From the NCBI GenBank assembly GCA_963662585.1, contig OY759729.1, positions 1,859,866 to 1,923,865 on the forward strand: a stretch of DNA of 64,000 nt, read 5' to 3'. The notes below the pieces were generated by a model. That model saw nothing but the letters and a program-made list of their open reading frames with translations, did no database searches and was not told where the DNA came from. Below are positions 17,030 through 62,676 of this stretch, one piece after another; positions within the stretch are counted from its first letter, which is position 1; every line of letters starts with the position of its first letter. Position numbers and translations under genes: made by a program. The DNA is from Candidatus Cloacimonadales bacterium. GTDB taxonomy: Bacteria > Cloacimonadota > Cloacimonadia > Cloacimonadales > JAFGVF01.

Positions 17030-17057
17030 AATTAAAAAGAAAAACTGAGATTATAAG

Positions 17058-17088: not shown

Positions 17089-17109
17089 ATAGGACAAGAG
17101 AAGGAAAAT

Positions 17110-18120
17110 ATGAATATTGCAATAATTGGTGGTGGAAGCTGGGGATTAGCCCTCTCTAACCTACTTTTCGATAACGGACATCAAGTTAAGGTGTGGGAAT
17201 ATAATTCTGAATTCGTTAATTTAATCAAGAATACTGGAAAAAATGAGATTTTCTTACCAAACATTCTCATTGAAGCAGAAGTTAGCGACTCCTTAACAGA
17301 GGTAATTACTCCAGCATGTGAAATGGTAATTCTTGCAACTCCATCTTCTTTTCTCAAGCAAATTCTAAAAGAAATTTCCCCTATTTTAGATAAATTAAAC
17401 AATTTGAAATATATTATTAATGTTGCTAAAGGATTTGACCACTCTAATGGTGATATTCTCTCTGAAATGATAAGGAAAGAATTACCCCAAAAATATAGCA
17501 AACTAATCTGTGTACTCTCAGGCCCTAGTCATGCTGAAGAAGTTGCTACTAAAAAGCCAACCACTGTAACGATTGCAGGCGAAGATCTCTTATATCTCAA
17601 AGAGGCTCAAGAAGCTTTCAGTAATGACTATTTTCGCGTTTATAGCACAACAGACATCATAGGTGTAGAACTGGGGGGTGCTCTAAAAAATGTGATAGCC
17701 ATGGCTGCAGGAATTGTTGTAGGCTTAGGTTTTGGAGATAATACTCTAGGTGCTCTCCTTACCAGAGGTAATGTAGAAATTAAGAGACTCTCTGTAGCAT
17801 TAGGTGCTAAACCTGAAACACTAGACGGCTTAGCTGGTATCGGTGATTTAATAACCACAGCTATCTCTCCCCATAGTAGAAACAGATTCGTAGGAGTTGA
17901 ACTGGGTAAAGGCAGAGATTTACAGGATATTTTAGCCGGAATGAAGATGGTGGCTGAAGGTGTCTTAGCAACTAATACTGCTTATATGCTAGCTGAGAAA
18001 CTCAATATCGAAATGCCTATTGTGGAAGCTACTTACAAAATTCTACAAAGTGAAATATCTGCTCGAGATGCAATAAGACAATTGATGCTCAGAGACTTAA
18101 AAAGCGAAAGGTGGATGTAA
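17110..18120 (+). CDS. gpsA: NAD(P)H-dependent glycerol-3-phosphate dehydrogenase
   Basis: NIAIIGGGSWG dinucleotide fold, GALKNVIAMAAG, and a 336-aa length typical of GpsA. Confidence 0.92.
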   Translation: MNIAIIGGGSWGLALSNLLFDNGHQVKVWEYNSEFVNLIKNTGKNEIFLPNILIEAEVSDSLTEVITPACEMVILATPSSFLKQILKEISPILDKLNNLKYIINVAKGFDHSNGDILSEMIRKELPQKYSKLICVLSGPSHAEEVATKKPTTVTIAGEDLLYLKEAQEAFSNDYFRVYSTTDIIGVELGGALKNVIAMAAGIVVGLGFGDNTLGALLTRGNVEIKRLSVALGAKPETLDGLAGIGDLITTAISPHSRNRFVGVELGKGRDLQDILAGMKMVAEGVLATNTAYMLAEKLNIEMPIVEATYKILQSEISARDAIRQLMLRDLKSERWM

Positions 18121-18183
18121 GAGAATTGAGAATTGAGAATTGAGAATTCAGAATTGAGAATTGAGAATGGAGAATTTAGAATT
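18121..18183. repeat. Heptanucleotide tandem array, (GAGAATT)x9 with 3 variant units
   Basis: Read directly: gagaatt x4, cagaatt, gagaatt, gagaatg, gagaatt, tagaatt. It starts on the base after the gpsA TAA stop. Confidence 0.95.
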
Positions 18184-18187
18184 AAAA

Positions 18188-18278
18188 GATGAGGGGCTTC
18201 TTAACTGGGAATGTGGGCTTCCAGCCCGCATCATTGCGAGGCAATGATATATCTTCAAACCCCAAGGGATTAAATAAA
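18188..18278. repeat. ~90-bp three-hairpin module, copy 1 (second copy at 50808-50898)
   Basis: GATGAGGGGCTTCTTAACTGGGAATGTGGGCTTCCAGCCCGCATCATTGCGAGGCAATGATATATCTTCAAACCCCAAGGGATTAAATAAA. Contains GGGCT-tcc-AGCCC, CATTGC-gag-GCAATG and CCC-caa-GGG hairpins. About 94 percent identical to the second copy by eye. Confidence 0.9.
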
Positions 18279-18306
18279 AAAGCAGGTTGAAATACAGCCT
18301 GATGGC

Positions 18307-18860
18307 TTCACGGACTAAAGGTCCGTAACCCCAGTTAATCACTAAAGATGATAGCTTACAGCATGATAATCCCTCTTCTGCCGGATTGTGGACAACCTGA
18401 AGACCGGAGTTCCTCAGCCGTAGGCAAGGGACTTCGGACGAAGAAATTTGTCTGTCGGAAGTAGCTATTCCGTAAAATTGCTTAAAAATCTAGAAATCCC
18501 TGTATCTAATGTAGAAGCAGAAACGCTTCCACTTTATAGAAGAAAACACCCCCTGTATCCCCCTCGCGGAGGGGGATTTAAGATTCACGGACTAAAGGTC
18601 CGTAACCCCAGTTAATCACTAAAGATGATAGCTTACAGCATGATAATCCCTCTTCTGCCGGATTGTGGACAACCTGAAGACCGGAGTTCCTCAGCCGTAG
18701 GCAAGGGACTTCGGACGAAGAAATTTGTCTGTCGGAAGTAGCTATTCCGTAAAATTGCTTAAAAATCTAGAAATCCCTGTATCTAATGTAGAAGCAGAAA
18801 CGCTTCCACTTTATAGAAGAAAACACCCCCTGTATCCCCCTCACAGAGGGGGATTTAAAA
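18307..18860. repeat. 277-bp direct repeat x2
   Basis: TTCACGGACTAAAGGTCCGTAACCCCAGTTAATCACTAAAGATGATAGC... begins at 18307 and again at 18584. The two copies are near-identical until about 18845. Confidence 0.9.
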
Positions 18861-18928
18861 ACACCCCGTCTGCTTCGCAGCCACCCCTCTTTTATCGTGC
18901 CTTCAGCACTAAAGAGGGGAGTTTAAGA

Positions 18929-19075
18929 TTCACGGACTAAAGATCCGTAACCCCAGTTAATCACTAAAGAGGGGGATTTAAGATTCACGGACTAAAGATC
19001 AGTAACCCCAGTTAATCACTAAAGAGGGGGATTTAAGATTCACGGACTAAAGGTCCGTAACCCCAGTTATTAAAT
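18929..19075. repeat. 55-bp tandem repeat, 2.7 copies
   Basis: TTCACGGACTAAAGATCCGTAACCCCAGTTAATCACTAAAGAGGGGGATTTAAGA starts at 18929, 18984 and 19039. Contains the ACGGAC-taaag-GTCCGT hairpin. Confidence 0.9.
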
Positions 19076-19296
19076 TATTTAGGATGGACAATTAGCTTGC
19101 CCTTTTGATTTATTATGGAATGGGGGCTATTCAGTGTATTATCTTCTTCGTGAAATTCATGAAAATGTAAGCAAGGGGCTTATTTTCGTAGAGATAAATA
19201 ATAATACAAATATGTCTGTTAGCATTTTTTAGATTTATTCTTTGACAAAATATAGTCCTATAATAAACTTTTCCCAAAAGTACCAAAAGGATAATC

Positions 19297-20454
19297 ATGA
19301 TAAGTCATAATGTAGTTACAGAATATATATCAGTCTTTATTTTAGCCTTTGTTTTAGTGTATAGTATTACACCATGGATAATCAAATTAGCGCACAAAAT
19401 TAACTTTGTGGATAACCCTAATGCTAGGAAAATTCATAAAACAGCAATACCCTTGATGGGGGGATTAAGTGTTTTTATTGGATTTATTGCCTTAGTGGTC
19501 TATGATGTTGTTATTGTATCTGATAGAGTGTTTAATATGAGGTTGATAGGCTATTTATTAGGGGCTTTGGTCATAGTGATTGTTGGGGTAATTGATGATA
19601 AGCGTGGAATGAACCCAGTTGTTAAGCTAGGTGGTCAATTCTTAGCTTGTTCCTTATTCATCTTTACTAATTTCGGAACAGTTACTTACTTTAATTTACC
19701 GCTATTCAATGATGTTTCATTTCCTATGATATTATTGAGTAACGATATTATGTTCAACAATTATTTTTCAATACCTATATTGTATATTTGGATGATAGGT
19801 CTGATGAATGCTACCAACTTTTTGGATAATATGGATGGGATGATTACAGGTATTTCATCAATCATTGCCTTAGGTTTTTTTGCATTCAGTATGATCATTA
19901 ATCCTGATAATAGTAGTTCAGCTTTGTGGCTCAGTTTGATGGGATTACTTTCACTATCTTATGCTGGAGCTGTTCTAGGCTTCTTGCCTTATAATTTTAA
20001 TCCTGCCAAAATTTTCTTAGGAGATGCTGGTTCCATGTTTATAGGTTACTTTATCTCTTCTATGGGGATATTGATGGCCAACTTTGCTTCTTTGCAATTC
20101 CAGAGTAAATGGTTCTATCTTTTACCGGTTATTTTAATAAGTTACGCAATATTTGATATTTGCTTTGTTAGTATAACAAGGAAAAGGGATGGAAGGTTAG
20201 TTTGGCAAGGAGGAAAAGATCATACTACACATAGAATAAAGAACTTATTAGATTCTGTAAAAGTAACAGCTTTATTGATTTATGCAATTAATATTATTGT
20301 AGTTATTTTAACTATAATGGTTACTTTAATTGGAAGTTATGAGCTGTTATTAGCGATATTGGTTATCTGCTCAATATGCTATGTATTGCTAGGAAGAAGG
20401 CTGTATGCAGTAGAAGTAGAGATACCGGCTAATCAATTAAAGAAAAGAGTTTAA
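19297..20454 (+). CDS. Polyprenyl-phosphate sugar-1-phosphate transferase, MraY/WecA family (glycosyltransferase family 4)
   Basis: 385-aa polytopic membrane protein with family-like motifs DDKRGMNP, NATNFLDNMDG and FLGDAGSMFIGY. Confidence 0.8.
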   Translation: MISHNVVTEYISVFILAFVLVYSITPWIIKLAHKINFVDNPNARKIHKTAIPLMGGLSVFIGFIALVVYDVVIVSDRVFNMRLIGYLLGALVIVIVGVIDDKRGMNPVVKLGGQFLACSLFIFTNFGTVTYFNLPLFNDVSFPMILLSNDIMFNNYFSIPILYIWMIGLMNATNFLDNMDGMITGISSIIALGFFAFSMIINPDNSSSALWLSLMGLLSLSYAGAVLGFLPYNFNPAKIFLGDAGSMFIGYFISSMGILMANFASLQFQSKWFYLLPVILISYAIFDICFVSITRKRDGRLVWQGGKDHTTHRIKNLLDSVKVTALLIYAINIIVVILTIMVTLIGSYELLLAILVICSICYVLLGRRLYAVEVEIPANQLKKRV

Positions 20455-20455
20455 G

Positions 20456-21193
20456 ATGAAATTAACAATTCTTGGGACAGCCCCCGGAAAATCAATATTA
20501 GGTAAAAGTCATACTTCATATTTATTGGAAGATGATGAAAAGAAATTCCTAATTGATTGCGGAGAGGGAACAACTCAGAAATTGTTAGAAAAGAATCTTG
20601 CTGGGGATGAATTAGATTTGATAATAATATCTCATTTCCATCCAGATCATATTACAGGCTTATTTATTCTTTTACAAACTCTCTATTTAAATAAGAGAAG
20701 AAAAGATCTTTTCCTATTTTTACCTGAAAGTGTAGGGGAATTTGAAGCATTTTTAAAAACAGTATATATATTTAATGATAGATTTAGTTATAATATTAAT
20801 ATTCAGTTGTATGATGAGAATAGTTTTACTGATATTGGCATTTATCCTTTTAAGAATACACACTTAATTGGTTATAAGAGTATTGTAGATAAGTATAATT
20901 TGCCCAATAGGTTATTATCATACTCATTTATTATTGAAGGAGAGAGAAGAAGTTTATTATTATCTTCAGATATAAGATCCTTAGAAGATATTAATGAGCA
21001 AGTGCAGAGATGTGAGGTTTTGGTTTTAGATGGAATTCATCCTTCATCTCAATCAATAGAAGAGTTATTAAAAGAGAGCAACACAGAGGTTTATATTACA
21101 CATGGAGATTATTCAAATTTACAAGAAAAGTTTGCTGAACTACTCAGCGACCAAATTAAATTGGCAGAAGAAAATGATGAAATATTTCTATAA
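20456..21193 (+). CDS. MBL-fold metallo-hydrolase
   Basis: HxHxDH motif (ISHFHPDHITG) and a later HGD. 245 aa. Confidence 0.75.
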   Translation: MKLTILGTAPGKSILGKSHTSYLLEDDEKKFLIDCGEGTTQKLLEKNLAGDELDLIIISHFHPDHITGLFILLQTLYLNKRRKDLFLFLPESVGEFEAFLKTVYIFNDRFSYNINIQLYDENSFTDIGIYPFKNTHLIGYKSIVDKYNLPNRLLSYSFIIEGERRSLLLSSDIRSLEDINEQVQRCEVLVLDGIHPSSQSIEELLKESNTEVYITHGDYSNLQEKFAELLSDQIKLAEENDEIFL

Positions 21194-22691
21194 ATCATTG
21201 CTAATTTCAATTCTGTTAATTATTTTTAGTGGATGCGAATCTAATAGATATCGCAACGCTACTTCTTCCTATTATCAAGGTAGATACACAGTTTCTATAG
21301 AAGAGATTGATACTTATCTTAAAGAGGCAAGTAATGGAGCATATAAAACAAATGCTGAATTAATAAGAAGCAAGTCTTATTATAAGCTAGCCTTAAGAGC
21401 CTATGAATCAGATAATCTAGCTCTTGCTACTAGATTCGCTATTTTAGCAAACTCAGCAACTACTGATTCACTATTAGCCAGATGCTATTATGATTTTGCC
21501 AAAGTCTCTTTTTCTAAAAATGATAAGGAAAAAGGATTTGAGTTTTATAATCAGATTCTTTTAGAAATTCCTGAATCCCGTTTCACACCTGAAATTATTT
21601 ACACAAAAATGAAAGATAGCTATACTACTAATCCTAATAATTACTTAGAAGCATGGGAATATTATAAACAATTCTGCCCTAAGTACAGGGATAACAATTA
21701 TGAAAAAGAGGCTCGTAAAATAGTCCTCGAATTTTCACCTCAATATATTTCTGATGCTCTAAGTGCTGATTCTCAGGTTGGTTTAGAGAAGTTATTAGAG
21801 CTAGTTAAATATCCTGTTGGAAATACAAGAGAAACTAATGGTGCAATATCCCAGATATATATAAGAATGGCAGAAGAAAATATTACAGAGAATAACTTTA
21901 TTGAAGCAGATAATAACTTCAAGGCTGCTGTTTATTACGACTCTTCTGTAAAAGATTTTGTTAAAAAAAGATTATTAGATACGGCTGAACAATATATTAT
22001 TAGTGGTCAAGAGTATGTTCGACAAAGGGATTTTGAAAATGCCTTTCTTCTTTTCAATCGGACATTTGATGTTATTCCTGGTTATAAAAAAGCTCTTAAC
22101 GCTATTCAAGAAACCACAGAACTTCTCAGTAGAATTGAACAAGCTAAAGAATTATACGATGAAGGTCAAAAATTGGAAAAAGCTAATTTGAGAAATATCT
22201 TCCCTGGAGTGAAAGTGAAACTTTCAGTTACTGAAAGAAATAATTTCGAGATTAAAAGGTTCGAAAAAATACTAGCTATTTATCAAAAAGCCTATAATTT
22301 AGATCCACTACCACAATATAAACAACAAATTTCCTATACTACTAACATTATTAAATACTTTAAAAACCCTGATGAATTCGCTGTAGAAATATTAAAAGAG
22401 TATAAATCTTTTATAGTTGAAAAAGCCATTAATGAAGCGAGAGAATATCTGTTAACAAATATTACCTCTTCTGCATTGACAGATACAGGTTGGGAGGTTT
22501 TAGTCGCTTCAGGAAGTTACCAATATGAAGTTAGATATACATTGATAAGTTTATCTAAGAAATTCTATTTTAGATGGTTAGTTAACTTAAAGAACAAAGA
22601 GATTACTGCTCTTAACAGTCTGTCAGAAGAGGCACTGAAAGGTAAATTCGTAATAAATGAAGAGGAAAAAGAGAATGAAAATATCGACTAA
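21174..22691 (+). CDS. Lipoprotein with helical-repeat (TPR-like) character, function unknown
   Basis: I start it at ATG 21174 (MMKYFYKSLLISILLIIFSGCESN, lipobox FSGC), overlapping the previous gene end. The track start at 21102 lies inside the upstream gene. Confidence 0.6.
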   Translation: MMKYFYKSLLISILLIIFSGCESNRYRNATSSYYQGRYTVSIEEIDTYLKEASNGAYKTNAELIRSKSYYKLALRAYESDNLALATRFAILANSATTDSLLARCYYDFAKVSFSKNDKEKGFEFYNQILLEIPESRFTPEIIYTKMKDSYTTNPNNYLEAWEYYKQFCPKYRDNNYEKEARKIVLEFSPQYISDALSADSQVGLEKLLELVKYPVGNTRETNGAISQIYIRMAEENITENNFIEADNNFKAAVYYDSSVKDFVKKRLLDTAEQYIISGQEYVRQRDFENAFLLFNRTFDVIPGYKKALNAIQETTELLSRIEQAKELYDEGQKLEKANLRNIFPGVKVKLSVTERNNFEIKRFEKILAIYQKAYNLDPLPQYKQQISYTTNIIKYFKNPDEFAVEILKEYKSFIVEKAINEAREYLLTNITSSALTDTGWEVLVASGSYQYEVRYTLISLSKKFYFRWLVNLKNKEITALNSLSEEALKGKFVINEEEKENENID

Positions 22692-50964: not shown

Positions 50965-51795
50965 TTAGAAACTAGATTCTACCAACTCCCCATTTTCGTA
51001 GGTTTCTTCATAATTAATGCTTCCGTTTTCATTATAATCGATGAACTTACCATGCAGTTTCCCATTTTTGTAGTAAATTTTACGAGAGATATTACCATTT
51101 ATATAATATGATAAATGCTCACCGACTTTTTTACCCATTACATAATAAGCTTTAGTTTTTAGATTCTTGTTGTGAAAATACTCTAAATACTCACCATCTT
51201 TTTTCCCATTTATATAGTTACACTTGCTATCTATATTCCCATTAGGATGGTACCATAAAACCTCTCCCTCTTCCTTTCCAACTTTATAATAACGCTCAAC
51301 TATTAAGCCCCCATTTTTATCATAACTTTTATACTCACCTTCTCTTTTCCCATCTATATAGTATGCTTTATCCCAGAGGGCTCCATTCTCATGATAACCA
51401 ATAGATTCACCTTCTTCTTTACCTTCTTTATAAGTAGCTTTTATCCATAAATTACCATTCTCATGATACTTGATAAGTTCTCCATCCTCTTTCCCATCTT
51501 TAAAATTAACTTTACTGCGTAAATCTCCATTTTTAAAATATCCTATGAACTCCCCAGTTTGCTTATCGTTAATATAGTTGCCTATATATGCCATAACTCC
51601 ATTTTCATAATACACAATAGACTGACCATTCTTTTTATCATCTTTATACTGGGATACTCGTTTGATTGCTCCGTTTTTATAATATTCCATGACTTGGCCA
51701 TTCTTTGTATCATTTTCATGATTAATAGCATTATTACTACAAGCAACGACTATTAAAAAGAGTAAAAATAGGAATAAGTACTTATTTAATTTCAT
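50965..51795 (-). CDS. MORN-repeat (YwqK-type) lipoprotein
   Basis: Lipobox VVACS, followed by about 10 repeats of the pattern G.....YY.NG....K..Y..GK..GE. Confidence 0.8.
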   Translation of the reverse strand: MKLNKYLFLFLLFLIVVACSNNAINHENDTKNGQVMEYYKNGAIKRVSQYKDDKKNGQSIVYYENGVMAYIGNYINDKQTGEFIGYFKNGDLRSKVNFKDGKEDGELIKYHENGNLWIKATYKEGKEEGESIGYHENGALWDKAYYIDGKREGEYKSYDKNGGLIVERYYKVGKEEGEVLWYHPNGNIDSKCNYINGKKDGEYLEYFHNKNLKTKAYYVMGKKVGEHLSYYINGNISRKIYYKNGKLHGKFIDYNENGSINYEETYENGELVESSF

Positions 51796-52250: not shown

Positions 52251-54278
52251 ATGAAACAATATGTAAGATTTGTATGGCTATTACTGATATTGCTACTACT
52301 TGCTTGTGAAGAAAGAAGCACTAACCCTGACAATTACCCTAACATACTTTCTCAAAATACTTACCTGATATCTACTGCAGATATTAATCAAAATGCTATA
52401 ACTATCACAGAATCTACCCTTATTATAAAGCAGTCTGGTGCTCTAAAATATTTAGATACTGGAGATATATTAATAGTCGGACCAAATAACTTGTCCGACA
52501 AAGGTCTTTTTCTTAAAATTATAAGTAAAGAAACGACAAATGATGAAATTACTTTAACAATTGAAAAAGCAAGATTAACTGAAGCTTTTACTAATTTAGA
52601 TGTAGAAGAAAAGATACAACTTACTTCTGAAGATATCCGTGAGATTGAGCTTAATAATAGTAGCTATTCTAGCGATGATGAGAGACTTAATTTTAATGTG
52701 GATGGCATTGTTTATGATCGGGATAATGATATTACAACTACTGATGATCAAGTTAAATTTACAGGAACTTTATCTTTTGAATTAGCTTTTGAGCTAGAAC
52801 TTGAAATAGAAAAGAACCTACTAGAGGAGTATCAGCTTAACTGGGATATAGACAAGGATATTAATTTAAATCTAGTCACTGGTAGTACGGTTTATGAAGA
52901 GATGGATAACTTGATGCTTGATATAGCCTATATTTCTTATTCTCCTCAACTAATTCTGATAGATAACATTCCCTTAGTAATCACCCCTAAAGTGCATCTT
53001 TCTGTAGCTTTAGATGGTGAACTAATGGTAAAGTTCGCTTCTAATATTAGTTATTCTGAATCTTCAGAAAGTGGGTTGGAATATGATTCAGGATTATGGA
53101 ATAATATAAATTCTAACGATAATAGCTTTTCTCTTTCTGAGTTACCAGAGAATAACGAGTTAGATTTTACTCAAAAAACCTCAACCCTTCTTGCTTTAGA
53201 TTTGTTCAATTCAGAAATAGCTAGCATTCTTGTAGATAATAAGCTAAACTTTGAAGCTAAACATTATGCTACTCAAGATAATAGTAACAATCTAAAAACC
53301 CTTATAACTGCAAGTCAGCTGGTTAGCTCAGATTTCAGAATGCAAATAATCTCTCCTTTGCTTGCAGATAAATATTGTGAGTTCCTAGCCTATGAACAGA
53401 CTCTTACCGATGATTACAGTTCAATTGATACTCCAGCAGATATGGCATTTGTGCCAGGAGGAGCTTTTATCATGGGAAATACTAGAGGAGCTGAAGTAGA
53501 GGAAGAACTTACTCCTCATCAAGTTTTCCTTAGTCCTTTTTATATGTGTATCCATGAAGTTACTCAAGGTGAATATTCAGCTATCATGGGAGAAAATCCA
53601 AGCAGTCTTCTTAGTGAAGAATGGCCTGTGGAGAAAGTAAGTAGAGCTAAAGCTTATGCCTACTGCAATTTATTATCAATAGAGGAAAACAGGGAACCAG
53701 CTTACACCTATGATCAAGATGGGACAGACCCGAATACTTGGTCTGATGGCTGGACTGATTCTAATAATGTAGATAATTTTACTTGTGATTTTACAGCAAA
53801 TGGCTATAGACTTCCTACCGAAGCAGAATGGGAGTATGCAGCCAGAGGTGCTACAAATGAACCTGACTACATCTATTCAGGTTCAGACAACTTTTCTAAT
53901 GTTGTAGGTATCGGGCTTTGGGAATATTGGTGGGGACCAGGTGCTGTAGAAGGTTATTCTCTTATAGGATATAGCGCCGTATGTAGTAGAAATGCTAATT
54001 CCTTAGGTATTTATGATATGTCGGGAAGTGTCTGGGAAATGTGTTGGGATTACTATGCCCTTTATAATACAGACTTTCAAGTTAATCCTACTGGTCCTGA
54101 AAGCGGTATTAATCATGTGTTGAGAGGTGGGTCAGTGGAAAACATGACCGAGAACCGCCCTCAATGTCAAGTAATTTATCGTGGTCACTTTTCAGAAACT
54201 GTTCATCCTCCCCAGTGTATTGGTTTTAGGGTGGTTATGAATGCAGATCAAGATAATCTAGGAGGAAATAATGATTAG
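52251..54278 (+). CDS. Lipoprotein with an unknown ~400-aa N-terminal region and a C-terminal FGE-sulfatase (SUMF1/C-type-lectin-fold) domain
   Basis: Lipobox LLLLACE. The C-terminal domain carries FVPGGAFIMGN, EVTQGEYSAIMGENPS, YRLPTEAEWEYAARG, GIYDMSGSVWEMCWD, RGGS and GFRVV. Confidence 0.8.
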   Translation: MKQYVRFVWLLLILLLLACEERSTNPDNYPNILSQNTYLISTADINQNAITITESTLIIKQSGALKYLDTGDILIVGPNNLSDKGLFLKIISKETTNDEITLTIEKARLTEAFTNLDVEEKIQLTSEDIREIELNNSSYSSDDERLNFNVDGIVYDRDNDITTTDDQVKFTGTLSFELAFELELEIEKNLLEEYQLNWDIDKDINLNLVTGSTVYEEMDNLMLDIAYISYSPQLILIDNIPLVITPKVHLSVALDGELMVKFASNISYSESSESGLEYDSGLWNNINSNDNSFSLSELPENNELDFTQKTSTLLALDLFNSEIASILVDNKLNFEAKHYATQDNSNNLKTLITASQLVSSDFRMQIISPLLADKYCEFLAYEQTLTDDYSSIDTPADMAFVPGGAFIMGNTRGAEVEEELTPHQVFLSPFYMCIHEVTQGEYSAIMGENPSSLLSEEWPVEKVSRAKAYAYCNLLSIEENREPAYTYDQDGTDPNTWSDGWTDSNNVDNFTCDFTANGYRLPTEAEWEYAARGATNEPDYIYSGSDNFSNVVGIGLWEYWWGPGAVEGYSLIGYSAVCSRNANSLGIYDMSGSVWEMCWDYYALYNTDFQVNPTGPESGINHVLRGGSVENMTENRPQCQVIYRGHFSETVHPPQCIGFRVVMNADQDNLGGNND

Positions 54279-56940
54279 TAAAATTACCAAGCATATACTT
54301 ATAGCCCTCTTCTTATTATTTGTTTTAGTTAGCTGTGAAGATAAGGTTTCTAGTCCTACCCTAAAAGAAGCTTCACTTGCTAGCAATACTCATTTGAATC
54401 ATGATTATATTTTGAATATTTCAGACCAGCAAATTAGTGTAGATAAAGATAATTCTCTTAGTAAGGCAGAGCTTGGTGATATTATCATGTCTGCTTCAAG
54501 ACCTGAAGCCCCTGAAGGTTTCTTACGAAAAGTCCTTAGTAAAAATACTCAGGGAAATACAGTTGATTTTGGAACTACTAATGCTTCTTTTTTAGAGGCA
54601 TTTAGCAAACTTAATCTGCAAAGGACTATTTCACTTACCCCAGACCAAATAGTAGATTTTGAATTATTCAATGAGTGTCTTTATGACAGTGATGAAGATG
54701 TAGATGGTTATAATTTTGTTTTTAATTCAGCTCTCTATGATCAAGATAATGATAGAGGAACAGTTGATGACCAAATAGTAATTTCAGGAAATATGAAGAT
54801 TAATTTAGGAATGGAAGTTAATATCTCAATAGAAAATCAAGAATTGAATAACTTTTCCCTTGAAACAACCATGGAAAAAGAAGGAAGCTTGAATCTAAAT
54901 GTTAAAAATATTGATAATTTTGCTGATAATACTAAAATAGCTTTAGCAAGTATGAAGTTTTATCCTCAAACAATTCTTCTTGATAAGATTCCTATTGTAA
55001 TAACTCCAACTGTAGTTCTTAGCTTACAAATTCAGGGAAACTATGATTTTATTTGTGTTTCTGAAGTTGTCTTAGAAGAGAGTAGTAGAAATGGGGTAAG
55101 CTATGAAGCCGGCAGTTGGCAAGCTATCGGTTCCTCTCAGAAAGAGCTCAATTCAACAATAAGTGATGTAAATAAAGAGTATAATATTCAGTATGGTATG
55201 ACTAGTGAGAATCATTATAAGCTCTACGACCAAGATTTAATTTCTATTATTTCTGAAAATAGCTTTAATTTTCTTAAGGAACTATCTTATGATGATGCAA
55301 TACATGAATTAAATAATACTGTTGAAGCTTCCCTGGTAAATAATATAACACTAGAAGCAGGAGCTATTTCTTCTCAAATGACCAACTTAGTTTTTTCTGA
55401 TATTGTTTATTCAGAGCCTATTAATCAGGAAGAAACTGAAACAGAATTCTTAAACGAATTGATATACATTGCGGGAGGAGATTTTGTTCATGATGGAGTT
55501 ACTAAAAAAAGTACTGTGAATGATTTCTTTATTAGCAAATATGAAGTAACCCAAGCTCAATTTGAAGCAGTAATGGGCTATAATCCAAGCACTTTTACAG
55601 GTTGGAATAAGCCAGTTGAAACCGTCTCTTGGTATGAAGCAATAAGGTTCTGTAATAAGTTATCTATTCAAGAAGGTTACAGCCCCTGTTATGATTTTTC
55701 TGGCTATGGTACAGATCCTGATACATGGCCAGACGAATATGGATACATTTCTTGGGTTGACTACTCTTCTTCTTTAATTAATTCTGGATATGGAAATGGA
55801 TATAGTTTGCCTACTTCCTTACAGTGGAGGTTTGTAGCTGACCAAGGAATTTCCCATGCTAGCTTGCCTTATTCCGGCTCAAGTGATTGTAATGAAGTTG
55901 CCCACTATGCAGGAAATAATGACCCGTATGGCCCTAAAGTTGTAGGAACAAAAGAAGCTAACTCTTATGGTATTTATGATCTTAACGGTAATGTGGGTGA
56001 ACTAATGTGGACTCTAGATTATAGCAAAGCTAAAAGAGCTGACCGCATCCTTATTATGGTAAGGGGTGGTGGTTGGAATAGTGATGCAGAACAATGCAAA
56101 ATTAAACAGAGAAGATATCAACAAGAAAATGACAAAATGATTGATGTTGGCTTTAGAATAGTAAGACAAACTAATGATGCTTCTGCCTATACTGTGAATC
56201 AGCCAACTATTACTCGTACTGCGATGACTTACTATTTGCCTATCACTGTTAGTATTAGTACTATAACACCTGGGGCTGAAATAAGATACACTCTTGATGG
56301 GTCTGAGCCAACAGAAGAATCTACTCTCTACGAAGGCTCTTTTCTCATTGAAAGTACTTGTACCCTGACTACTAAAGGTTTTAAGGAAAACTGGACACCT
56401 AGTAGGAGTAAATCAGCTAATTTCTATATCTACCCTCTTCTTGCTCCAACAATAAGCCCTGCATCAGGATTTTATCCAGAGCCCATAGAGGTAGAAATTA
56501 CCAGTGAACATTGGGATAATCGTCTTAGATATCGTAAAAACTCCTCGACTATTTATTATTATTCTAATCCCTTCACTCTTGATGAGACTGCCGTTATATC
56601 AGCTTGGAGCCTGGTCTGGAATTATGAATTAGAGACATATACCAGTAGCGATACAGTTTATGCTGAATATCAAATACCTAGAGCTACTCTTATTAATCCT
56701 CCGATAATTTCTCCACCTACTGGAAGCTATTCAAGTCCTCAAAGAGTATCATTAAATCTCTCTGAAAGCGACTATCCTATCTATTATACTCTAGATGGAT
56801 CCTTGCCTACTCATAATTCTCTGAGATACACTAATCCTTTTGAAATTAGTAAATCATGTACTATAAGGTCATTTGCCTATAGGAGTGGAGACGGGCAAAG
56901 TAGAGTTTCAGAAGCAAACTTCATTATCGAAACAAAGTAA
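54271..56940 (+). CDS. Paralogous lipoprotein: same N-terminal region, an FGE-sulfatase domain and three C-terminal chitobiase/FN3-associated-like repeats
   Basis: AGGAGG RBS and lipobox LVSCE. FGE strings EVTQAQFEAVMGYNPS, VSWYEAIRFCNKLS, GIYDLNGNVGELMW, RGGGW and GFRIVR. The C-terminus has three ~80-aa repeats with IRYTLDGSEPT / IYYTLDGSLPT. Confidence 0.8.
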   Translation: MISKITKHILIALFLLFVLVSCEDKVSSPTLKEASLASNTHLNHDYILNISDQQISVDKDNSLSKAELGDIIMSASRPEAPEGFLRKVLSKNTQGNTVDFGTTNASFLEAFSKLNLQRTISLTPDQIVDFELFNECLYDSDEDVDGYNFVFNSALYDQDNDRGTVDDQIVISGNMKINLGMEVNISIENQELNNFSLETTMEKEGSLNLNVKNIDNFADNTKIALASMKFYPQTILLDKIPIVITPTVVLSLQIQGNYDFICVSEVVLEESSRNGVSYEAGSWQAIGSSQKELNSTISDVNKEYNIQYGMTSENHYKLYDQDLISIISENSFNFLKELSYDDAIHELNNTVEASLVNNITLEAGAISSQMTNLVFSDIVYSEPINQEETETEFLNELIYIAGGDFVHDGVTKKSTVNDFFISKYEVTQAQFEAVMGYNPSTFTGWNKPVETVSWYEAIRFCNKLSIQEGYSPCYDFSGYGTDPDTWPDEYGYISWVDYSSSLINSGYGNGYSLPTSLQWRFVADQGISHASLPYSGSSDCNEVAHYAGNNDPYGPKVVGTKEANSYGIYDLNGNVGELMWTLDYSKAKRADRILIMVRGGGWNSDAEQCKIKQRRYQQENDKMIDVGFRIVRQTNDASAYTVNQPTITRTAMTYYLPITVSISTITPGAEIRYTLDGSEPTEESTLYEGSFLIESTCTLTTKGFKENWTPSRSKSANFYIYPLLAPTISPASGFYPEPIEVEITSEHWDNRLRYRKNSSTIYYYSNPFTLDETAVISAWSLVWNYELETYTSSDTVYAEYQIPRATLINPPIISPPTGSYSSPQRVSLNLSESDYPIYYTLDGSLPTHNSLRYTNPFEISKSCTIRSFAYRSGDGQSRVSEANFIIETK

Positions 56941-57020
56941 TTTCCCAATACTTCAGTAAAGCTGATAAGAAGCTTGACACAATAGTTAGTTAATAAAAGG
57001 ATGAAAATCCAAACACCGAT

Positions 57021-57070
57021 AAAGAGACATTTTCAATTAATTTTGATTTTGTCTCTTTTCTTATTTTTGA
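57021..57070 (+). terminator. Possible terminator after the FGE-domain gene pair
   Basis: AAAGAGAC (57021-57028) / GTCTCTTT (57051-57058), followed by TCTTATTTTTG. The 22-nt loop is long, so this is weak. Confidence 0.3.
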
Positions 57071-57355
57071 AATTCTATTGTCACACCACCTGTATCCCCC
57101 TCATAGAAGGAGATTTAAGAGTTATTGTAGCACCCCCTGTGTCCCCCTCATAGGAGGGGGATTTAAGAAAACACCCCGTCTGCTGCGCAGCCACCCCTCT
57201 TTTAGCGTGCCTTCAGCATTAAAGCGGGGAATTTGAAGATGTTGTACCAGATTAAACTTCCATCTACACATCTTTTAGTCTGCCTTGAGCAATCAAGGGG
57301 GAATTGAATAGGTAAAGACTCTTGTTTTCTTCATCATTATAATAGTAATAGCAAT

Positions 57356-57789
57356 CTTAAATCCCGGAGGGATAACATATAATAGGGAGTGTTCGCAAGA
57401 CACTCCTAAGGACACGACTGGAAAATAGCCCTAGAAGGGCGACATACCCTAAATGTATGAAATCAAATTAATAATTTCTTTTATAATTGACCTTATGGTT
57501 TATAAACTTTATTCCTAGATATCAATGAAACAATATTTATTGAACTTGGCTTTATTACAAAACTAAACTATTTTGGTTTATATGAACCGAATAGCAGAGA
57601 ATGAGTATTTAAGAAATAGTGAAACTTAGCAAAAGATTAAGATAAAAAAACACAATGATGATTAGGGATATTATGATGATTCTGGCAGGTCAGAGGATAT
57701 ATCGCCCTTCCAGGGCTATCTTTTTGTCGCGACATCTAGGAGTGTCTTGCGAGCACTCCCTATTATATGGCATCCCTTAGGGATTTAAG
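57356..57789. mobile_element. 434-bp inverted-repeat (MITE-like) element, copy 1
   Basis: The ~94-bp left arm (57356-57449) is the imperfect reverse complement of the right arm (57695-57789). The ~245-bp core is AT-rich and has no conserved ORF. Confidence 0.55.
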
Positions 57790-57998
57790 AGGAATCACCC
57801 CCTGTATCCCCCTCATAGAAGGGGATTTAAGAGTTATTGTAGCACCCCCTGTGTCCCCCTCATAGGAGGGGGATTTAAGAAAACACCCCGTCTGCTGCGC
57901 AGCCACCCCTCTTTTAGCGTGCCTTCAGCACTAAAGTGGGGAATTTGAAGATGTTGTACCAGATTAAACTTCCATCTACACATCTTTTAGTCTGCCTT

Positions 57999-58353
57999 TT
58001 CAGATTTGCTCCAGAGGAGCAGTTTCTTGGTAGCCATGAATTTGTTAAAGAAATCCCATCGCTCCGTAGGTGCGAAGATATACAAATTATCATCATTAAA
58101 GCTTAAAATAAATAGGTTTTTTTATCATAATCTTCATTGCCATAACATAAAAAGCAATTCGCACCTACGGAGCGATTTCTTTGGGGATATGACATTTATG
58201 CTACCAAGAAATAGCTCCACTGGAGCTAGAAATTAGCACTTCAGACTTCAGTACCAAAAATGGCAGTTGAAGAGTGTGATAATCCCTCTTCTGTCGGATT
58301 GAGGACAGCTTGTCCGCTGTGAATTGATTAATAGCAGATGAATAGTCTATTAA
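57999..58353. mobile_element. 355-bp nested insertion flanked by 15-bp direct repeats, containing its own 230-bp inverted-repeat element
   Basis: CTTTTAGTCTGCCTT occurs at 57984-57998 and 58354-58368. Copies 1 and 3 of the macro-repeat are uninterrupted at this site. Internal IR arms lie at 58004-58076 and 58158-58233. Confidence 0.6.
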
Positions 58354-58437
58354 CTTTTAGTCTGCCTTGAGCAATCAAGGGGGAATTGAATAGGTAAAGA
58401 CTCTTGTTTTCTTCATCATTATAATAGTAATAGCAAT

Positions 58438-58872
58438 CTTAAATCCCGGAGGGATAACATATAATAGGGAGTGTTCGCAAGACACTCCTAAGGACACGAC
58501 CGGAAAATAGCCCTAGAAGGGCGACATACCCTAAAAGAATGAAGTCAAATTAATAATTTTTTTTATAATTGACCTTATGGTTTATAAACTTTATTCACTA
58601 GATCAATCAAACAATATTTATTGAACCTGGCTTTATTACAAAAACTAAACTATTTTGGTTTATATGAACCGAATAGCAGAGAATGAGTATTTAAGAAATA
58701 GTGAAACTTAGCAAAAGATTAAGATAAAAAAGCACAATAATGATTAGGGATATTATGATGATTCTGGCAGGTCAAAGGGATATATCGCCCTTCCAGGGCT
58801 ATCTTTTTGTCGCGACATCTAGGAGTGTCTTGCGAGCACTCCCTATTATATGGCATCCCTTAGGGATTTAAG
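58438..58872. mobile_element. 434-bp inverted-repeat (MITE-like) element, copy 2
   Basis: Same arms and core as 57356-57789, differing by a few substitutions and by 1-2-nt indels. Confidence 0.55.
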
Positions 58873-59150
58873 AGGAATCACCCCCTGTATCCCCCTCATA
58901 GAAGGGGATTTAAGGGATTATTGTAGCACCCCCTGTATCCCCCTCATAGAAGGGGATTTAAGAAAACACCCCGTCTGTTTCGCAGCCACCCCTCTTTTAG
59001 CGTGCCTTCAGCACTAAAGCGGGGAATTTGAAGATGTTGTACCAGATTAAACTTCCATCTACACATCTTTTAGTCTGCCTTGAGCAATCAAGGGGGAATT
59101 GAATAGGTAAAGACTCTTGTTTTCTTCATCATTATAATAGTAATAGCAAT

Positions 59151-59586
59151 CTTAAATCCCGGAGGGATAACATATAATAGGGAGTGTTCGCAAGACACTC
59201 CTAAGGACACGACCGGAAAATAGCCCTAGAAGGGCGGCATACCCTAAATGTATGAAATCAAATCAATAATTTCTTTTATAATTGACCTTATGGTTTATAA
59301 ACTTTATTCACTAGATATCAATGAAACAATATTTATTGAACCTGGCTTTATTACAAAACTAAACTATTTTGGTTTATATGAACCGAATAGCAGAGAATGA
59401 GTATTTAAGAAATAGTGAAACTTAGCAAAAGATTAAGATAAAAAAACACAATGATGATTAGGGATATTATGATGATTCTGGCAGGTCAAAGGGATATATC
59501 GCCCTTCCAGGGCTATCTTTTTGTCGCGACATCTAGGAGTGTCTTGCGAGCACTCCCTATTATATGGCATCCCTTAGGGATTTAAG
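59151..59586. mobile_element. 434-bp inverted-repeat (MITE-like) element, copy 3
   Basis: Same arms and core as 57356-57789. Confidence 0.55.
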
Positions 59587-59772
59587 AGGAATCACCCCCC
59601 TGTATCCCCCTCATAGAAGGGGATTTAAGGGATTATTGTAGCACCCCCTGTGTCCCCCTCATAGAAGGGGATTTAAGGGATTATTGTAGCACCCCCTGTA
59701 TCCCCCTCATAGAAGGGGATTAAGAAAAAAGGCAAGCTTTGCAGATTGCCTTCATGTTTATCTATATGTATA

Positions 59773-59813
59773 CTATTAGTCTTCAATACCTCTATTAGTC
59801 TTCAATACCTCTA
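59773..59813. repeat. 19-bp tandem duplication spanning the thiC stop codon
   Basis: CTATTAGTCTTCAATACCT occurs at 59773-59791 and 59792-59810, followed by CTA. The second copy encodes the last residues and stop of thiC on the minus strand. Confidence 0.9.
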
Positions 59814-61072
59814 TCAGTTCTGACAGCACAGAGTTTTCCACACATAGTGCAATAATCATCATCTTTTGATTCAGAGTTACTTTTTCTTGATTTAGCTAAT
59901 TCTGGGTCTAGGGAGTTAGCATAAATTGTTTCCCAATCAAATTCTCTACGAGCTTTAGATACTCTATGATCTTGTTCGATAGCCCCAGGAACTTTCTTCA
60001 CAATATCCCCAGCATGGGCAGCAATTTTAGTGGCGATAATACCTTGTTTAACATCTTCAGGAGTTGGTAAGCAGAGGTGTTCCGCAGGAGTAACATAGCA
60101 GAGGAAATCTACTCCGGCAGCAGCAGCAAGTGCTCCACCGATAGCTCCAGTGATATGGTCATAACCAGACGCGATATCTGTAACTAGTGGACCTAAGACA
60201 TAGAAAGGTGCTTCTTTACAGATAGATTTCATAATCTTAACATTCATTTCTACTTGATCTAAAGGAATATGGCCTGGTCCTTCAACCATGACTTGAACTC
60301 CTCTTTTTCTAGCTCTTTCTACTAATTCGCCTAATACTAAAAGCTCAGCAAATTGCCCTCTATCAGAAGCATCAAATTGGGAGCCAGGTCTCATTCCATC
60401 ACCGAGTGATAGTGTTACATCATATTTAGCACAAATCTCTAAAAGACGGTCGTAATGTTCATAGAGAGGATTTTCGCATTTATGATTCTTCATCCATTGT
60501 TTGATAAGTGAACCACCACGAGAAACTATGCCTAATAATCTTTCAGAAGTTTCATAAGTAGCAACACTTTGTCTGGTGATTCCACAATGAACGGTTACGA
60601 AATCCACACCTAGCTTAGCATGATTTTCTATCTCTTCAAAAAGGAGGTCAGGAGTCATATCATAGAAAGCTTTCTCTTCAGCTAATAGTCTGCTCATTAC
60701 GCTATAGATGGGCACAGTACCCACCATAATAGGAGAAGAATCAACTACTTGCTTGAGGATGGCAGCTAAATCTCCACCTGTTGATAAATCCATAATGCTA
60801 TCTGCACCATATTTTACTGAAACATTAAGTTTTTCTAATTCTTCTTCAATAACGCAATGTTTTTCTGAAGTACCGATGTTGGAATTAACCTTAGTTTTTA
60901 GTCCGTAGCCTATACCAACTGCGCTGAAGTTATGATTAATATTTTTAGGAATTACTATTCTTCCTTTGGCAACTTCTTCTCTAATGTATTCTCCATTTCT
61001 ATTTTCTTTTTGGGCTACAATCTCCATTTCTGGAGTGATAATGCCTTTTAAAGCTGATTCTAATTGTGTCAT
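59795..61072 (-). CDS. thiC: Phosphomethylpyrimidine synthase ThiC (short form)
   Basis: 425 aa with the C-terminal Fe-S motif CTMCGKLCAV and ThiC-like strings (GTVPIY, DFVTVHCG, GPGHIP). Confidence 0.93.
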   Translation of the reverse strand: MTQLESALKGIITPEMEIVAQKENRNGEYIREEVAKGRIVIPKNINHNFSAVGIGYGLKTKVNSNIGTSEKHCVIEEELEKLNVSVKYGADSIMDLSTGGDLAAILKQVVDSSPIMVGTVPIYSVMSRLLAEEKAFYDMTPDLLFEEIENHAKLGVDFVTVHCGITRQSVATYETSERLLGIVSRGGSLIKQWMKNHKCENPLYEHYDRLLEICAKYDVTLSLGDGMRPGSQFDASDRGQFAELLVLGELVERARKRGVQVMVEGPGHIPLDQVEMNVKIMKSICKEAPFYVLGPLVTDIASGYDHITGAIGGALAAAAGVDFLCYVTPAEHLCLPTPEDVKQGIIATKIAAHAGDIVKKVPGAIEQDHRVSKARREFDWETIYANSLDPELAKSRKSNSESKDDDYCTMCGKLCAVRTDRGIED

Positions 61073-61084: not shown

Positions 61085-61696
61085 TTATATGTGTAGTTTA
61101 CTGGTTATTTTCAATATTCTCTCTTCGAGATTTTCACTATTCATAAAGTATCTGACTAAACAGATGTTCTGAGCTCCCTTATAGATAACTTCTTCCGCAT
61201 TTGTTTCATCAATTCCACCGATAGCTACAACAGGTATAGGTGAAATCTCAACAACTTGTCTGATGTTAGATAAGCCTACTGCTGGGTCTGGTTTAGCCTT
61301 AGTAGGAGTGGGGAAGATAGGTCCATAACCTATATAATCAGGCTTCTGGGCTATTGCTATTCTAGCTTGTTCTAAAGAATGAGTGGAGAGTCCGTAAATT
61401 TTATCTTGGCCCAAGATGGACTTAGCTTCTTCTAAACTTAAATCATCTTGTCCTAAATGAAGACCATCAGCATTCACTATTTTAGCTATATCAGCACGGT
61501 CATTGATGATAAATTTAGTAGGGCTTGCTGAAGTTATTTTCAGAATCTCTCGACTTATAGAAATAAGCTCTCTATCAGACAGATCTTTCTCGCGAAGTTG
61601 CAGGTATTTGATATTATACTTAACTGCGATGCGAGCTATTTCTTGATAGCTGAGATGCGGTTTAGTGATTATCAGATATAAACCGAAATCAGTCAT
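61085..61696 (-). CDS. thiE: Thiamine-phosphate synthase
   Basis: LQLREKDL, GPIFPTPTK and VVAIGGI motifs. 203 aa. Confidence 0.9.
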   Translation of the reverse strand: MTDFGLYLIITKPHLSYQEIARIAVKYNIKYLQLREKDLSDRELISISREILKITSASPTKFIINDRADIAKIVNADGLHLGQDDLSLEEAKSILGQDKIYGLSTHSLEQARIAIAQKPDYIGYGPIFPTPTKAKPDPAVGLSNIRQVVEISPIPVVAIGGIDETNAEEVIYKGAQNICLVRYFMNSENLEERILKITSKLHI

Positions 61697-62469
61697 TATT
61701 TGCCTAAGCTTTCTATAATCAAGTGAGCTACTTTCTGTCCTGAGAGAAGCATTCCGCCAAAGATAGGACCCATTCTAAATGAACCACTTACACCATTAGC
61801 AGCCATTCCTGATACGAATAAACCAGGATATACTTCTTTGGTATTCACTACTGTAGCTTCCTCACCTTCTTCAACAGAGAGAGATCTTTCTCCTTGAACT
61901 TTTCCAGTTGGAGTATTAAGAGTGATATTATTCTTGTTAGCAACAGTCTTGGTTACTTCACAAGGATGACCTGTTCCATCTAAGACACATTTAGCCATAA
62001 TTACTAAAGGGTCAACATGAAGTCCTTCTCTGATAATAGTTGCCCAATTCACCACAACACCCGCTACTCTCTCTTTCTGGAAAACAACATCTTCTACTAT
62101 AAAACCATTATTAATAATAGCCCCAGCTTTGGTTGCTGCATAGATTAAAGCTGAAGTAGCATGAACAGAATCGCAAGTGACACAAGTATCATCATATCTT
62201 TCATACTTGATGTTAAATTCATCTAAGATATCAGTAGCAATATTCTGTACTACTATCTGATTGAAGAGCATAGCACCGCCCCACATTCCACCACCAGGAG
62301 CAAGCTTGGATTCAAAGACTCCAACTTTCTTACCAGCTCTGGCCAAATATGTTGCTGCCACTAAACCTGAAGGTCCAGCACCAACTATCGCAACATCCAA
62401 CTCTAAAATACTCTTCAACTTGTTAAAATAGGTATCAATAATACCTCGGGAAACTGTAAGTTCCATCAT
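61696..62469 (-). CDS. thi4: Thi4-family thiazole synthase
   Basis: VAIVGAGPSGL dinucleotide fold and a C-terminal FRMGPIFGGMLLSGQK. The true start is ATGATG at 62469/62466, after GGAGG. The track ORF extends upstream to 62643, running through the riboswitch. Confidence 0.85.
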   Translation of the reverse strand: MMELTVSRGIIDTYFNKLKSILELDVAIVGAGPSGLVAATYLARAGKKVGVFESKLAPGGGMWGGAMLFNQIVVQNIATDILDEFNIKYERYDDTCVTCDSVHATSALIYAATKAGAIINNGFIVEDVVFQKERVAGVVVNWATIIREGLHVDPLVIMAKCVLDGTGHPCEVTKTVANKNNITLNTPTGKVQGERSLSVEEGEEATVVNTKEVYPGLFVSGMAANGVSGSFRMGPIFGGMLLSGQKVAHLIIESLGK

Positions 62470-62549
62470 TCCTCCAATTAATTTTGTTTTGTTTTGGAGG
62501 ATAATGCCTTGTAGAAGGTCAAAAAAATGTAAGGTGTGTATAAAAAATC

Positions 62550-62626
62550 GCATCTCACTTCCTTCGCCGGCATTACCCGGATCAGGTTCTAAGGGTATAA
62601 TCTCAGCCTTTCGGCACCCCTGAATC
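62550..62626 (-). promoter_or_regulatory. TPP (THI-box) riboswitch aptamer
   Basis: The minus strand reads CAGGGGTGCCGAAAGGCTGAGATTATACCCTTAGAACCTGATCCGGGTAATGCCGGCGAAGGAAGTGAGATG. It contains the GGGGTGC, CTGAGA, ACCCTT, AACCTGATC..GG.TAAT.CC.GCG.AGGAA consensus blocks. Confidence 0.92.
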
Positions 62627-62676
62627 TGCATGATCTTAGCCAATAAAAAATACTAACTAAAAGTGTCAAGATTAAA

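Follow-up and report, generated by a model that had tools for sequence, protein, structure and literature searches.

The window analysed here is a stretch of 64,000 nucleotides (G+C content of 34%) from a Candidatus Cloacimonadales bacterium (assembly GCA_963662585.1, contig OY759729.1, positions 1,859,866 to 1,923,865), and the feature under study is an extra DNA segment present in one copy of a tandem macro-repeat located in the intergenic region 56940–59795. This region separates two convergent genes, one on the + strand (54271–56940) encoding an 889-aa protein with FGE-sulfatase and CHB_HEX_C domains, and the other corresponding to thiC (59795–61072, − strand), whose product has its closest named relative (84% identity) in a metagenome-assembled genome (MAG) of Candidatus Cloacimonetes. 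The array of the source strain consists of ~3.2 tandem copies: copy 1 (57084–57795, 712 bp) and copy 3 (58879–59593, 715 bp) lack the segment, copy 2 (57796–58878, 1083 bp) contains an extra 370 bp, and a partial fourth copy (59594–59729) is made up only of small repeats that we call A modules.

The alignment of the copies showed that the surplus of copy 2, located between 57984 and 58368, amounts to 370 bases, corresponding to 355 bp plus one copy of the 15-mer CTTTTAGTCTGCCTT, and that copies 1 and 3 are continuous at the junction (...CACAT-CTTTTAGTCTGCCTT-GAGCAATCAAGG; 57272–57286 in copy 1 and 59067–59081 in copy 3). The first-pass annotation, made from the sequence alone, had described the 15-mer as occurring twice in copy 2 and bracketing 355 bp that the other copies lack, and the alignment agrees with this description. 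The left (57984–57998, + strand) and right (58354–58368, + strand) direct repeats of copy 2 are identical, and their length is exactly 15 bp, the bases flanking them differing on both sides. Allowing up to one mismatch, the 15-mer was found in the window only at 57272, 57984, 58354 and 59067, and shuffled sequences gave an expectation of 0. The left repeat forms the head of a U-type hairpin module, and the right repeat the head of a complete U2 module (CTTTTAGTCTGCCTTGAGCAATCAAGGGGGAATTGAATAG); in copies 1 and 3, the U2 module is uninterrupted and its homology to the adjacent U1 module extends through the junction, so this continuous form is the family-typical one. The segment has no second copy in the window or in the related loci fetched for comparison (loci are hereafter designated by L numbers), and two metagenome scans, one with the left junction and the other with a subfamily-specific unit pattern, gave no matches. 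The open reading frames (ORFs) overlapping the insert are all short (up to 76 aa). The Rfam scan of the window recovered only a thiamine pyrophosphate (TPP) riboswitch above the gathering threshold, and the tRNA/tmRNA scan of the window recovered nothing. The insert was also considered as a known Rfam RNA, and this was rejected: at relaxed thresholds, the matches were weak and involved long-hairpin miRNA-precursor models, and we took them to be due to chance.

The core of the segment is a doublet of 231 nt (58002–58232) in which two copies of the same double-hairpin unit, in opposite orientations, surround an AT-rich spacer of 81 bp (58077–58157). The left arm (58005–58076, + strand) and the right arm (58158–58229, − strand) were both recovered by a hidden Markov model (HMM) of the repeat family built without the window sequences (E values of 1.5e-11 and 3.3e-11, respectively), and these were exactly the two matches obtained in the 64 kb. 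With the columns of the 18-mer described below removed from the model, the arms were still the top matches, albeit weak ones (E values of 0.003 and 0.04). The order within the left arm is hairpin 1 (GCTCCAGAGGAGC), TTTCTTGGTAG, ~25 nt and hairpin 2 (TCGCTCCGTAGGTGCGAA). The presence in the insert of its own inverted repeat around an AT-rich loop, as initially annotated, was confirmed by a 27-nt seed with 89% complementarity, by the self-match of 58008–58226 (67.5% over 234 nt), and by the folding of the insert into one long hairpin (z scores of −8.4 for the + strand and −11.6 for the − strand; 0 of 100 shuffles as good). Each arm taken on its own folded into two hairpins in DNA folding. On either strand, the combination of hairpin 1 and a following TTTCTT obtains a terminator-like score, as a consensus match only. 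The doublet is followed by a tail of ~120 bp (58230–58353, + strand) composed of other small hairpin modules. The recurrence of this tail near 18.4 kb, also pointed out in the annotation, is real but short: 58277–58307 matches 18364–18394 and 18641–18671 with 93.5% identity over 31 nt, and both sites (18364 and 18641) fall within a tandem repeat of two 277-bp units. The tail module also recurs at L080:22515.

The 18-mer TCGCTCCGTAGGTGCGAA is perfectly common to both arms, and its use as a query in a scan of one genome per species revealed 74 loci, mainly from Bacteroidota and Cloacimonadales MAGs. It corresponds to the second hairpin of a conserved unit of ~72 nt in 57 of the 78 occurrences, this unit comprising hairpin 1 (GCTCC-NNN-GGAGC), AAAnnTTGGTAG, ~25 variable nt and hairpin 2 (TCGCTCCGTAGGTGCGAA), with stems of 5–7 bp and a conserved TTGGTAG located ~8 nt 3′ of hairpin 1 and ~25 nt 5′ of hairpin 2. 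Covariation was evident in hairpin 1 (GCTCC/GGAGC, ACTCC/GGAGT, ACCCC/GGGGT and GCCCC/GGGGC): 83% of the cells were paired, both sides had changed in 36 cells, versus 12.3 in shuffles (0 of 500 reached 36), and pairing fell to 34–50% when the partners were slid. The window units are closest to those of a Cloacimonadales MAG (loci L010, L019 and L021). In Bacteroidota and Cloacimonadota MAGs, the family occurs without genes as singletons, doublets and arrays, and the commonest arrangement of adjacent units is + − (20 of the 44 pairs in the fetched loci); setting aside three gene-holding spacings of ~500 nt, these + − pairs are gene-less doublets with a total length of 175 to 262 nt, and one of 368 nt. 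The first-pass annotation had proposed looking for duplications of consistent length at other copies, and the flanks of the gene-less family doublets contained no consistent direct repeats, in agreement with single-strand Y1 transposition, which makes none. The exact 18-mer was found on 4–10 contigs per genome in Bacteroidota MAGs. The units detected in the lineage of the source strain consist of the one doublet in the 64 kb and a singleton at an orthologous site in two relatives (L080 and L081), the other related loci fetched containing none. A separate form of the repeat, with the hairpin and linker in head-to-tail arrays with a 50-nt period, was observed in the Bacteroidales MAG Ja1_bin-1976 (L009:5117–5184, L015:5952–6019, L043:569–636 and L074:7777–7844), in which at least 10 contigs contain the exact 18-mer, a copy number far above that of the window's lineage. 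A literature search by sequence string identified no papers.

Clustering of the ORFs in the family loci revealed one recurrent neighbour, a protein of 137–172 aa encoded directly beside the units. The gene was found in five other genomes (L022, L030, L034, L060 and L062); four of the proteins match Pfam Y1_Tnp (1e-22 to 1e-28), and the fifth (L030), known from tblastn only, appears to be frameshifted. A + unit and a − unit flank the Y1 gene in L022, L030 and L062; the upstream unit of L060 matches the family only weakly, and no upstream unit was detected in L034. The arms of the window doublet share the + / − arrangement of the gene-flanking units, the 81-nt spacer replacing the gene. We also considered whether the spacer retains the start of a lost Y1 gene (ATGGCAA, − strand), and set this aside, as seven bases are too short to judge. 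The Y1 proteins pass the NCBIfam IS200/IS605 model (65–70 bits, with a cut-off of 55), fail the NCBIfam REP_Tyr_transpos model (23–36 bits, with a cut-off of 80) and match IS200/IS605 transposase structures, including 2xm3 and 2a6m. The invariant residues of the four aligned proteins (H55, H57, W95, Q96, Y115, Q119, H122 and H123) define a D/N-H-[VI]-H (HUH) motif, a WQ motif and a Y---Q--HH motif that reads Y-I-x-N-Q-E-E-H-H. By motif comparison, these proteins match the TnpAY1 subclass 1.2 (PMC6006769), which is characterized by Y---Q--HH, a DH[IV]H-type HUH and WQ motifs, a length of ~148 aa and hosts from Bacteroidetes or Cyanobacteria. Quentin et al. (2018; PMC6006769) described this subclass as low-copy, without repetitive extragenic palindromic (REP) sequences and generally without ends of the IS200 type. 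The REP search in that study required GT[AG]G at 0–2 nt from a stem of at least 7 bp, a requirement because of which it would miss the double-hairpin unit. A profile search with the four Y1 proteins gave more than 8000 matches. As a separate observation, Streptococcus hillyeri and S. sobrinus (L002:1760–2286 and L017:2878–3454) also have the 18-mer TCGCTCCGTAGGTGCGAA, at a distance of ~180 nt from Y1 genes of the IS200-like type; the surrounding context is different, and the identity (tblastn) between these Y1 and the Bacteroidota proteins is 25–27%.

The core of the segment is best seen as a doublet of the REPIN/TIRtron kind, presumably non-autonomous, embedded in a mosaic of hairpin modules. 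As in REPINs (REP doublets), REPtrons and bacterial interspersed mosaic elements (BIMEs), two inverted hairpin repeats surround a short spacer and form one long hairpin, and, as in REPtrons, the same repeat flanks a single small Y1 HUH gene in inverted orientation in other genomes. Gene-less singletons, doublets and arrays dispersed in intergenic DNA, lying in the window between convergent genes, together with the lack of target duplication and the conserved GTAG in the unit, are further points shared with REPINs. The enzyme, however, is not a class 2 REP-associated tyrosine transposase (RAYT), since it has Y---Q--HH rather than Y---NP; the unit is a double hairpin of ~72 nt and not a single REP of 20–40 nt; its GTAG is not at the foot of the stem, and hence there is no GT[AG]G within 0–2 nt 5′ of the stem; and the copy number in the window lineage looks low, with one doublet in the 64 kb. 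In TIRtrons, Y1 genes (TIRYTs) are associated with long terminal inverted repeats, and these repeats also constitute moderately abundant families (Di Nocera et al. 2013, PMC3733652). TIRtrons resemble the present family in having a Y1 gene bracketed by palindrome-containing inverted repeats of ~70 nt that are also found as singles, dimers and clusters with a moderate abundance. The published TIRYTs, by contrast, are RAYT-like (class 2.1, PMC6006769) and come from Proteobacteria and Acidobacteria, whereas the protein found here is IS200-like, of subclass 1.2, with hosts in Bacteroidota and Cloacimonadota. The likeness to TnpAY1 subclass 1.2 lies in the length of ~150 aa, the D/N-H-[VI]-H, WQ and Y-I-x-N-Q-x-E-H-H motifs and the Bacteroidetes hosts, and the difference is that the five members identified here are located beside double-hairpin repeats that are multi-copy in the same genomes. 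With IS200/IS605 elements, the family shares a Y1 HUH transposase of the IS200 type (in other genomes, the insert itself being without a gene), but its ends, around the Y1 genes as in the window doublet, are inverted copies of one 72-nt unit, unlike the dissimilar ends of those elements, which have subterminal hairpins read on one strand and lack terminal inverted repeats.

The position of the doublet relative to the direct repeats is relevant to the origin of the segment. The left arm starts 5–6 nt past the left 15-bp repeat, and the right arm stops ~120 nt short of the right repeat. Because of these offsets, of 5 and ~120 nt, the 15-bp repeats are not the target duplication (footprint) of the doublet. 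They correspond either to the heads of two related U-type modules or to a very old duplication. The tail stretch 58249–58281 weakly resembles the 3′ half of a U-type module (shuffle p ~0.06), and we suggest from the sequence that the doublet may lie inside a third U-type module, the 3′ half of which would resume in the tail. The segment is comparable to a classical miniature inverted-repeat transposable element (MITE) in its small size, its lack of a coding sequence, its inverted repeat, the direct repeats at its borders, and its presence or absence within otherwise identical sequence. It differs from a MITE in that the inverted repeat does not abut the direct repeats (offsets of 5–6 and ~120 nt), in the 15 bp, atypically long for a target duplication, and in the lack of a second copy in the window and related loci, the family doublets elsewhere having no duplications. 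A casposon-like or integrase-core reading of the 15-bp repeat, for which there is no supporting gene or terminal repeat, was set aside as a separate explanation and is covered by the reversible recombination considered below.

The 90%-identity cluster of the 889-aa upstream protein has five members. One of the relatives (L079; ENA ERZ25042269, ctg13228c, a contig of 3.12 Mb) is 98.3% identical to the window over 11.8 kb and 97.7% identical over 4.9 kb of flanks, and is therefore, with a flank identity of ~98%, of the same species as the source; it is referred to below as the sister strain. Its intergenic region, of 1359 bp, contains a single macro-repeat copy, and this copy holds the segment at the same site (99.2% identity over 386 nt), with an identical left 15-bp repeat and one mismatch in the right repeat; no gene was called in this segment. 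In the first-pass annotation, copies 1 and 3 had been taken as empty sites and copy 2 as the site of a clean insertion, and an insert that is unique in the genome and that relatives carry in all macro-repeat copies had been named as the sign of a deletion. The only same-species relative compared carries the segment in its single macro-repeat copy, so the clean insertion is not upheld, and recombination between short repeats, mentioned in the annotation as the alternative, fits the data better than insertion. The two more divergent relatives (L080 and L081; 85–95% identity to the window) have an intergenic region of only 180 bp with a single A module, and the intergenic region of a further relative, with 78% protein identity, contains small repeats that are unrelated. 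The macro-repeat block therefore originated in the last ancestor shared by the window strain and the sister strain, and its sole unamplified example contains the segment. Set against L080 and L081, the block is bounded by A-module direct repeats; in this lineage, recombination among modules seems to lead generally to blocks with a repeated small module at their borders.

In the comparison of the two strains, the segment (57999–58368 versus L079:12969–13339) has 3 differences in 370 positions, versus 21 in 665 for the remainder of that macro-repeat copy (Fisher p = 0.017); compared with the genome background of ~2%, the divergence of the segment is not clearly lower (p = 0.06). Possible reasons for this low divergence are constraint on a hairpin element, recent exchange between strains, or faster change of the amplified flanks. 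Over the 510 nt on the right-hand side of the site, copies 1 and 3 differ at 7 positions, copy 1 and the sister strain at 12, copy 3 and the sister strain at 11, copies 1 and 2 at 14, copies 2 and 3 at 11, and copy 2 and the sister strain at 16. Copy 2, the sister strain's copy and the pair formed by copies 1 and 3 therefore constitute three lineages of similar depth and, because only the lineage of copies 1 and 3 is without the segment, one change on this branch suffices. The site patterns are mosaic: copy 2 and the sister strain share a 2-nt indel and a substitution, and other sites group copy 2 with copy 3 or with copy 1. These differences also bear on the reading of the mixed array as an assembly artefact, in which reads of co-existing strains were joined or the copy number was mis-estimated. 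The contigs of the source and its relatives, of 3.0–3.3 Mb, seem to be complete or near-complete metagenome assemblies, and the copies differ by only 1–2.5%, as such a reading would have it; the three copies, however, have distinct private substitutions spread along their length, and contigs of this size suggest long reads, which would span the 2.9-kb array. We consider an artefact to be very improbable.

The polarity of the difference between copies 1 and 3 and copy 2 is not settled, and a fresh insertion is unsupported. Our leading interpretation, to which we give about an even chance, is that the extra segment is an ancestral composite that was lost from copies 1 and 3. The segment would already have been within the intergenic block before the block was amplified in the source strain. 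The ancestor of the source and sister strains would have had one block with the segment, the source strain would have amplified this block to ~3.2 tandem copies, and replication slippage or recombination involving the 15-bp repeats would then have removed the segment from copies 1 and 3. Such a loss would be favoured by the 230 bp of hairpin-forming sequence that the repeats enclose, as in the precise excision of inverted-repeat transposons. In E. coli, precise excision of Tn10 and Tn5 proceeds by slippage between the flanking short direct repeats, and a hairpin-forming stretch between direct repeats is a known slippage substrate. The present segment resembles these transposons in its hairpin-forming stretch between direct repeats and in that loss leaves one copy of the repeat; it differs from them in that its repeats are of 15 bp rather than 9 bp and one of them is ~120 nt from the hairpin. 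The doublet, presumably non-autonomous, would have been moved in trans by a Y1 transposase binding the hairpins in single-stranded DNA, a movement that would make no target duplication. The anatomy of the segment, the assignment of its arms to the repeat family, the link of this family with a Y1 gene in other genomes and the occupied single copy of the sister strain are observations; we infer both the deletion origin of copies 1 and 3 and Y1 mobilisation in the source genome. Loss is favoured by the occupied state of the sister strain's sole copy, and by the two crossovers that would be needed for an array with the order lacking, carrying and lacking to collapse to the carrying copy.

Several observations weigh against this interpretation. 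The unrooted tree of three lineages fits equally well an old insertion followed by collapse of the array in the sister strain. The lacking, carrying and lacking order does not result from a single unequal crossover of a two-copy array, and two deletions or gene conversion are needed. Copies 1 and 3 have their uninterrupted module in the family-typical form, as expected of a never-occupied site; the segment, being less diverged between the strains than its flanks, could be younger than them; and the right repeat is ~120 nt from the hairpin, such that hairpin-assisted slippage is less obviously favoured than in a classical transposon. As for mobilisation, the link to a Y1/HUH gene raised in the first-pass annotation stands at the level of the family, as the arms belong to a family that flanks Y1 genes elsewhere. 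The window and the related loci of Cloacimonadota type that were fetched (~170 kb) yielded neither a Y1 gene nor a further doublet, the L080/L081 singleton being the only additional unit detected.

An insertion at some earlier time is plausible, because the uninterrupted U2 is homologous to U1 across the junction. In a specific form of this explanation, which is the model of the first-pass annotation placed further back in time, a 355-bp element would have been inserted, with a 15-bp target duplication, into one allele or into one copy of an already multi-copy array, copies 1 and 3 would stem from copies that had never been occupied, and the array of the sister strain would later have collapsed to the occupied copy. 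The uninterrupted U2 module of copies 1 and 3 would then be the original form, the perfect 15-bp repeats of copy 2 and the lower divergence of the segment relative to its flanks would be accounted for, and the array could predate the split of the strains, since the divergence of copy 2 from copies 1 and 3 is similar to that between the strains. Against this, the only copy of the sister strain is occupied and the collapse would need two crossovers on defined sides of the site, the inverted repeat is non-terminal (5 and ~120 nt from the direct repeats), the family doublets have no target duplication, and there is no second 355-bp unit in the window or related loci. Moreover, Y1 (IS200/IS605) transposition makes no target duplication, and 15 bp exceeds the target duplications of most bacterial transposases. 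An old insertion of this type therefore seems unlikely to us.

A further explanation is reversible entry and exit of the segment via the 15-mer, involving a circular form that has one copy of the 15-mer and integrates at the identical 15-mer, by means of either a site-specific recombinase, the 15-mer being like an att core, or short-homology recombination of the Campbell type. The segment is bounded exactly by the 15-mers and the empty form is exactly a single 15-mer, as this explanation would predict; the pattern of module, insert and module seems to recur in the lineage, with the A modules bounding the whole block relative to L080 and L081; and the low divergence of the segment between the strains would fit a recent re-integration. 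However, no recombinase gene is present in or beside the segment, the window and related loci yielded neither a donor copy nor another occupied site, 15 bp is short for RecA-dependent recombination, and the present data do not separate this model from simple deletion. We regard reversible recombination as improbable, more so than an old insertion, and retain loss from copies 1 and 3 as the leading interpretation.

Other features of the window and its relatives concern the repeat modules and neighbouring genes. The window contains 11 occurrences of the A module (CCCTGTRTCCCCCTC...GGGGATTTAAGA), confined to the 57.0–59.7 kb region and to a second nest of hairpin modules (18121–19069), which also contains nine copies of GAGAATT (18121–18183), the 277-bp ×2 tandem repeat (18307–18858) and a 55-bp ×3 tandem repeat (18907–19069). 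Every macro-repeat copy has its own inverted repeat of ~96 nt (57355–57450/57694–57790 in copy 1, and the equivalent positions of the other two), each arm of which contains three hairpins; the arms enclose ~243 bp of AT-rich DNA, an organization that is MITE-like. A single arm homologous to this inverted repeat is present in L080 and L081 (at ~7522–7626), ~150 nt from the singleton double-hairpin unit. A MORN-repeat gene (50965–51795, − strand) is shared by the window and L079 and absent from L080 and L081, in which the corresponding space (L080:7086–7980 and L081:7252–7980) holds a single double-hairpin unit and a triple-hairpin arm. Beside the thi operon, L080 contains a block (15930–22565), lacking from the window, that encodes an HTH_3/Peptidase_S24 repressor-like protein and a large protein with a faint Mu-transposase C-terminal match; this block may be a Mu-like prophage. 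The end of L081 (21680–22565) encodes a group II intron reverse transcriptase (RVT_1, GIIM). The TPP riboswitch (62542–62631, − strand; 65.9 bits, with a gathering threshold of 54.3) precedes the thi4-thiE-thiC operon on the − strand. The Thi4 ORF (61696–62643, − strand) has 315 aa when read from a TTG codon, compared with 256–290 aa in its relatives and, because it overlaps the riboswitch, its true start is further in.

The use of sister tandem copies as empty sites proved unreliable at this locus, since a genome of the same species shifted the reading from insertion to probable loss. The locus itself is of modest interest, and the family-level link between the repeat and the subclass 1.2 Y1 proteins is the part worth following, as the arms tie a Cloacimonadota genome to a repeat family that brackets a Y1 subclass reported without repeats. 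We tentatively propose, at somewhat less than an even chance, that the double-hairpin repeat and the subclass 1.2 Y1 form a previously unrecognised system of the REPtron/REPIN type across the Fibrobacteres–Chlorobi–Bacteroidetes (FCB) group (Bacteroidota and Cloacimonadota), with a separate recruitment of an IS200-type enzyme that would maintain gene-less doublets, the window doublet being a member caught in a presence/absence polymorphism. The 18-nt hairpin, found near Y1 genes in Streptococcus as well, could be a conserved cross-phylum recognition element for Y1 enzymes and, should the link with Y1 be true, the very conserved TCGCTCCGTAGGTGCGAA would be an easy substrate for biochemistry. 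If the proposal is correct, partnerships of the REP/REPIN type with domesticated single-strand transposases would have arisen more than once, and beyond Proteobacteria.

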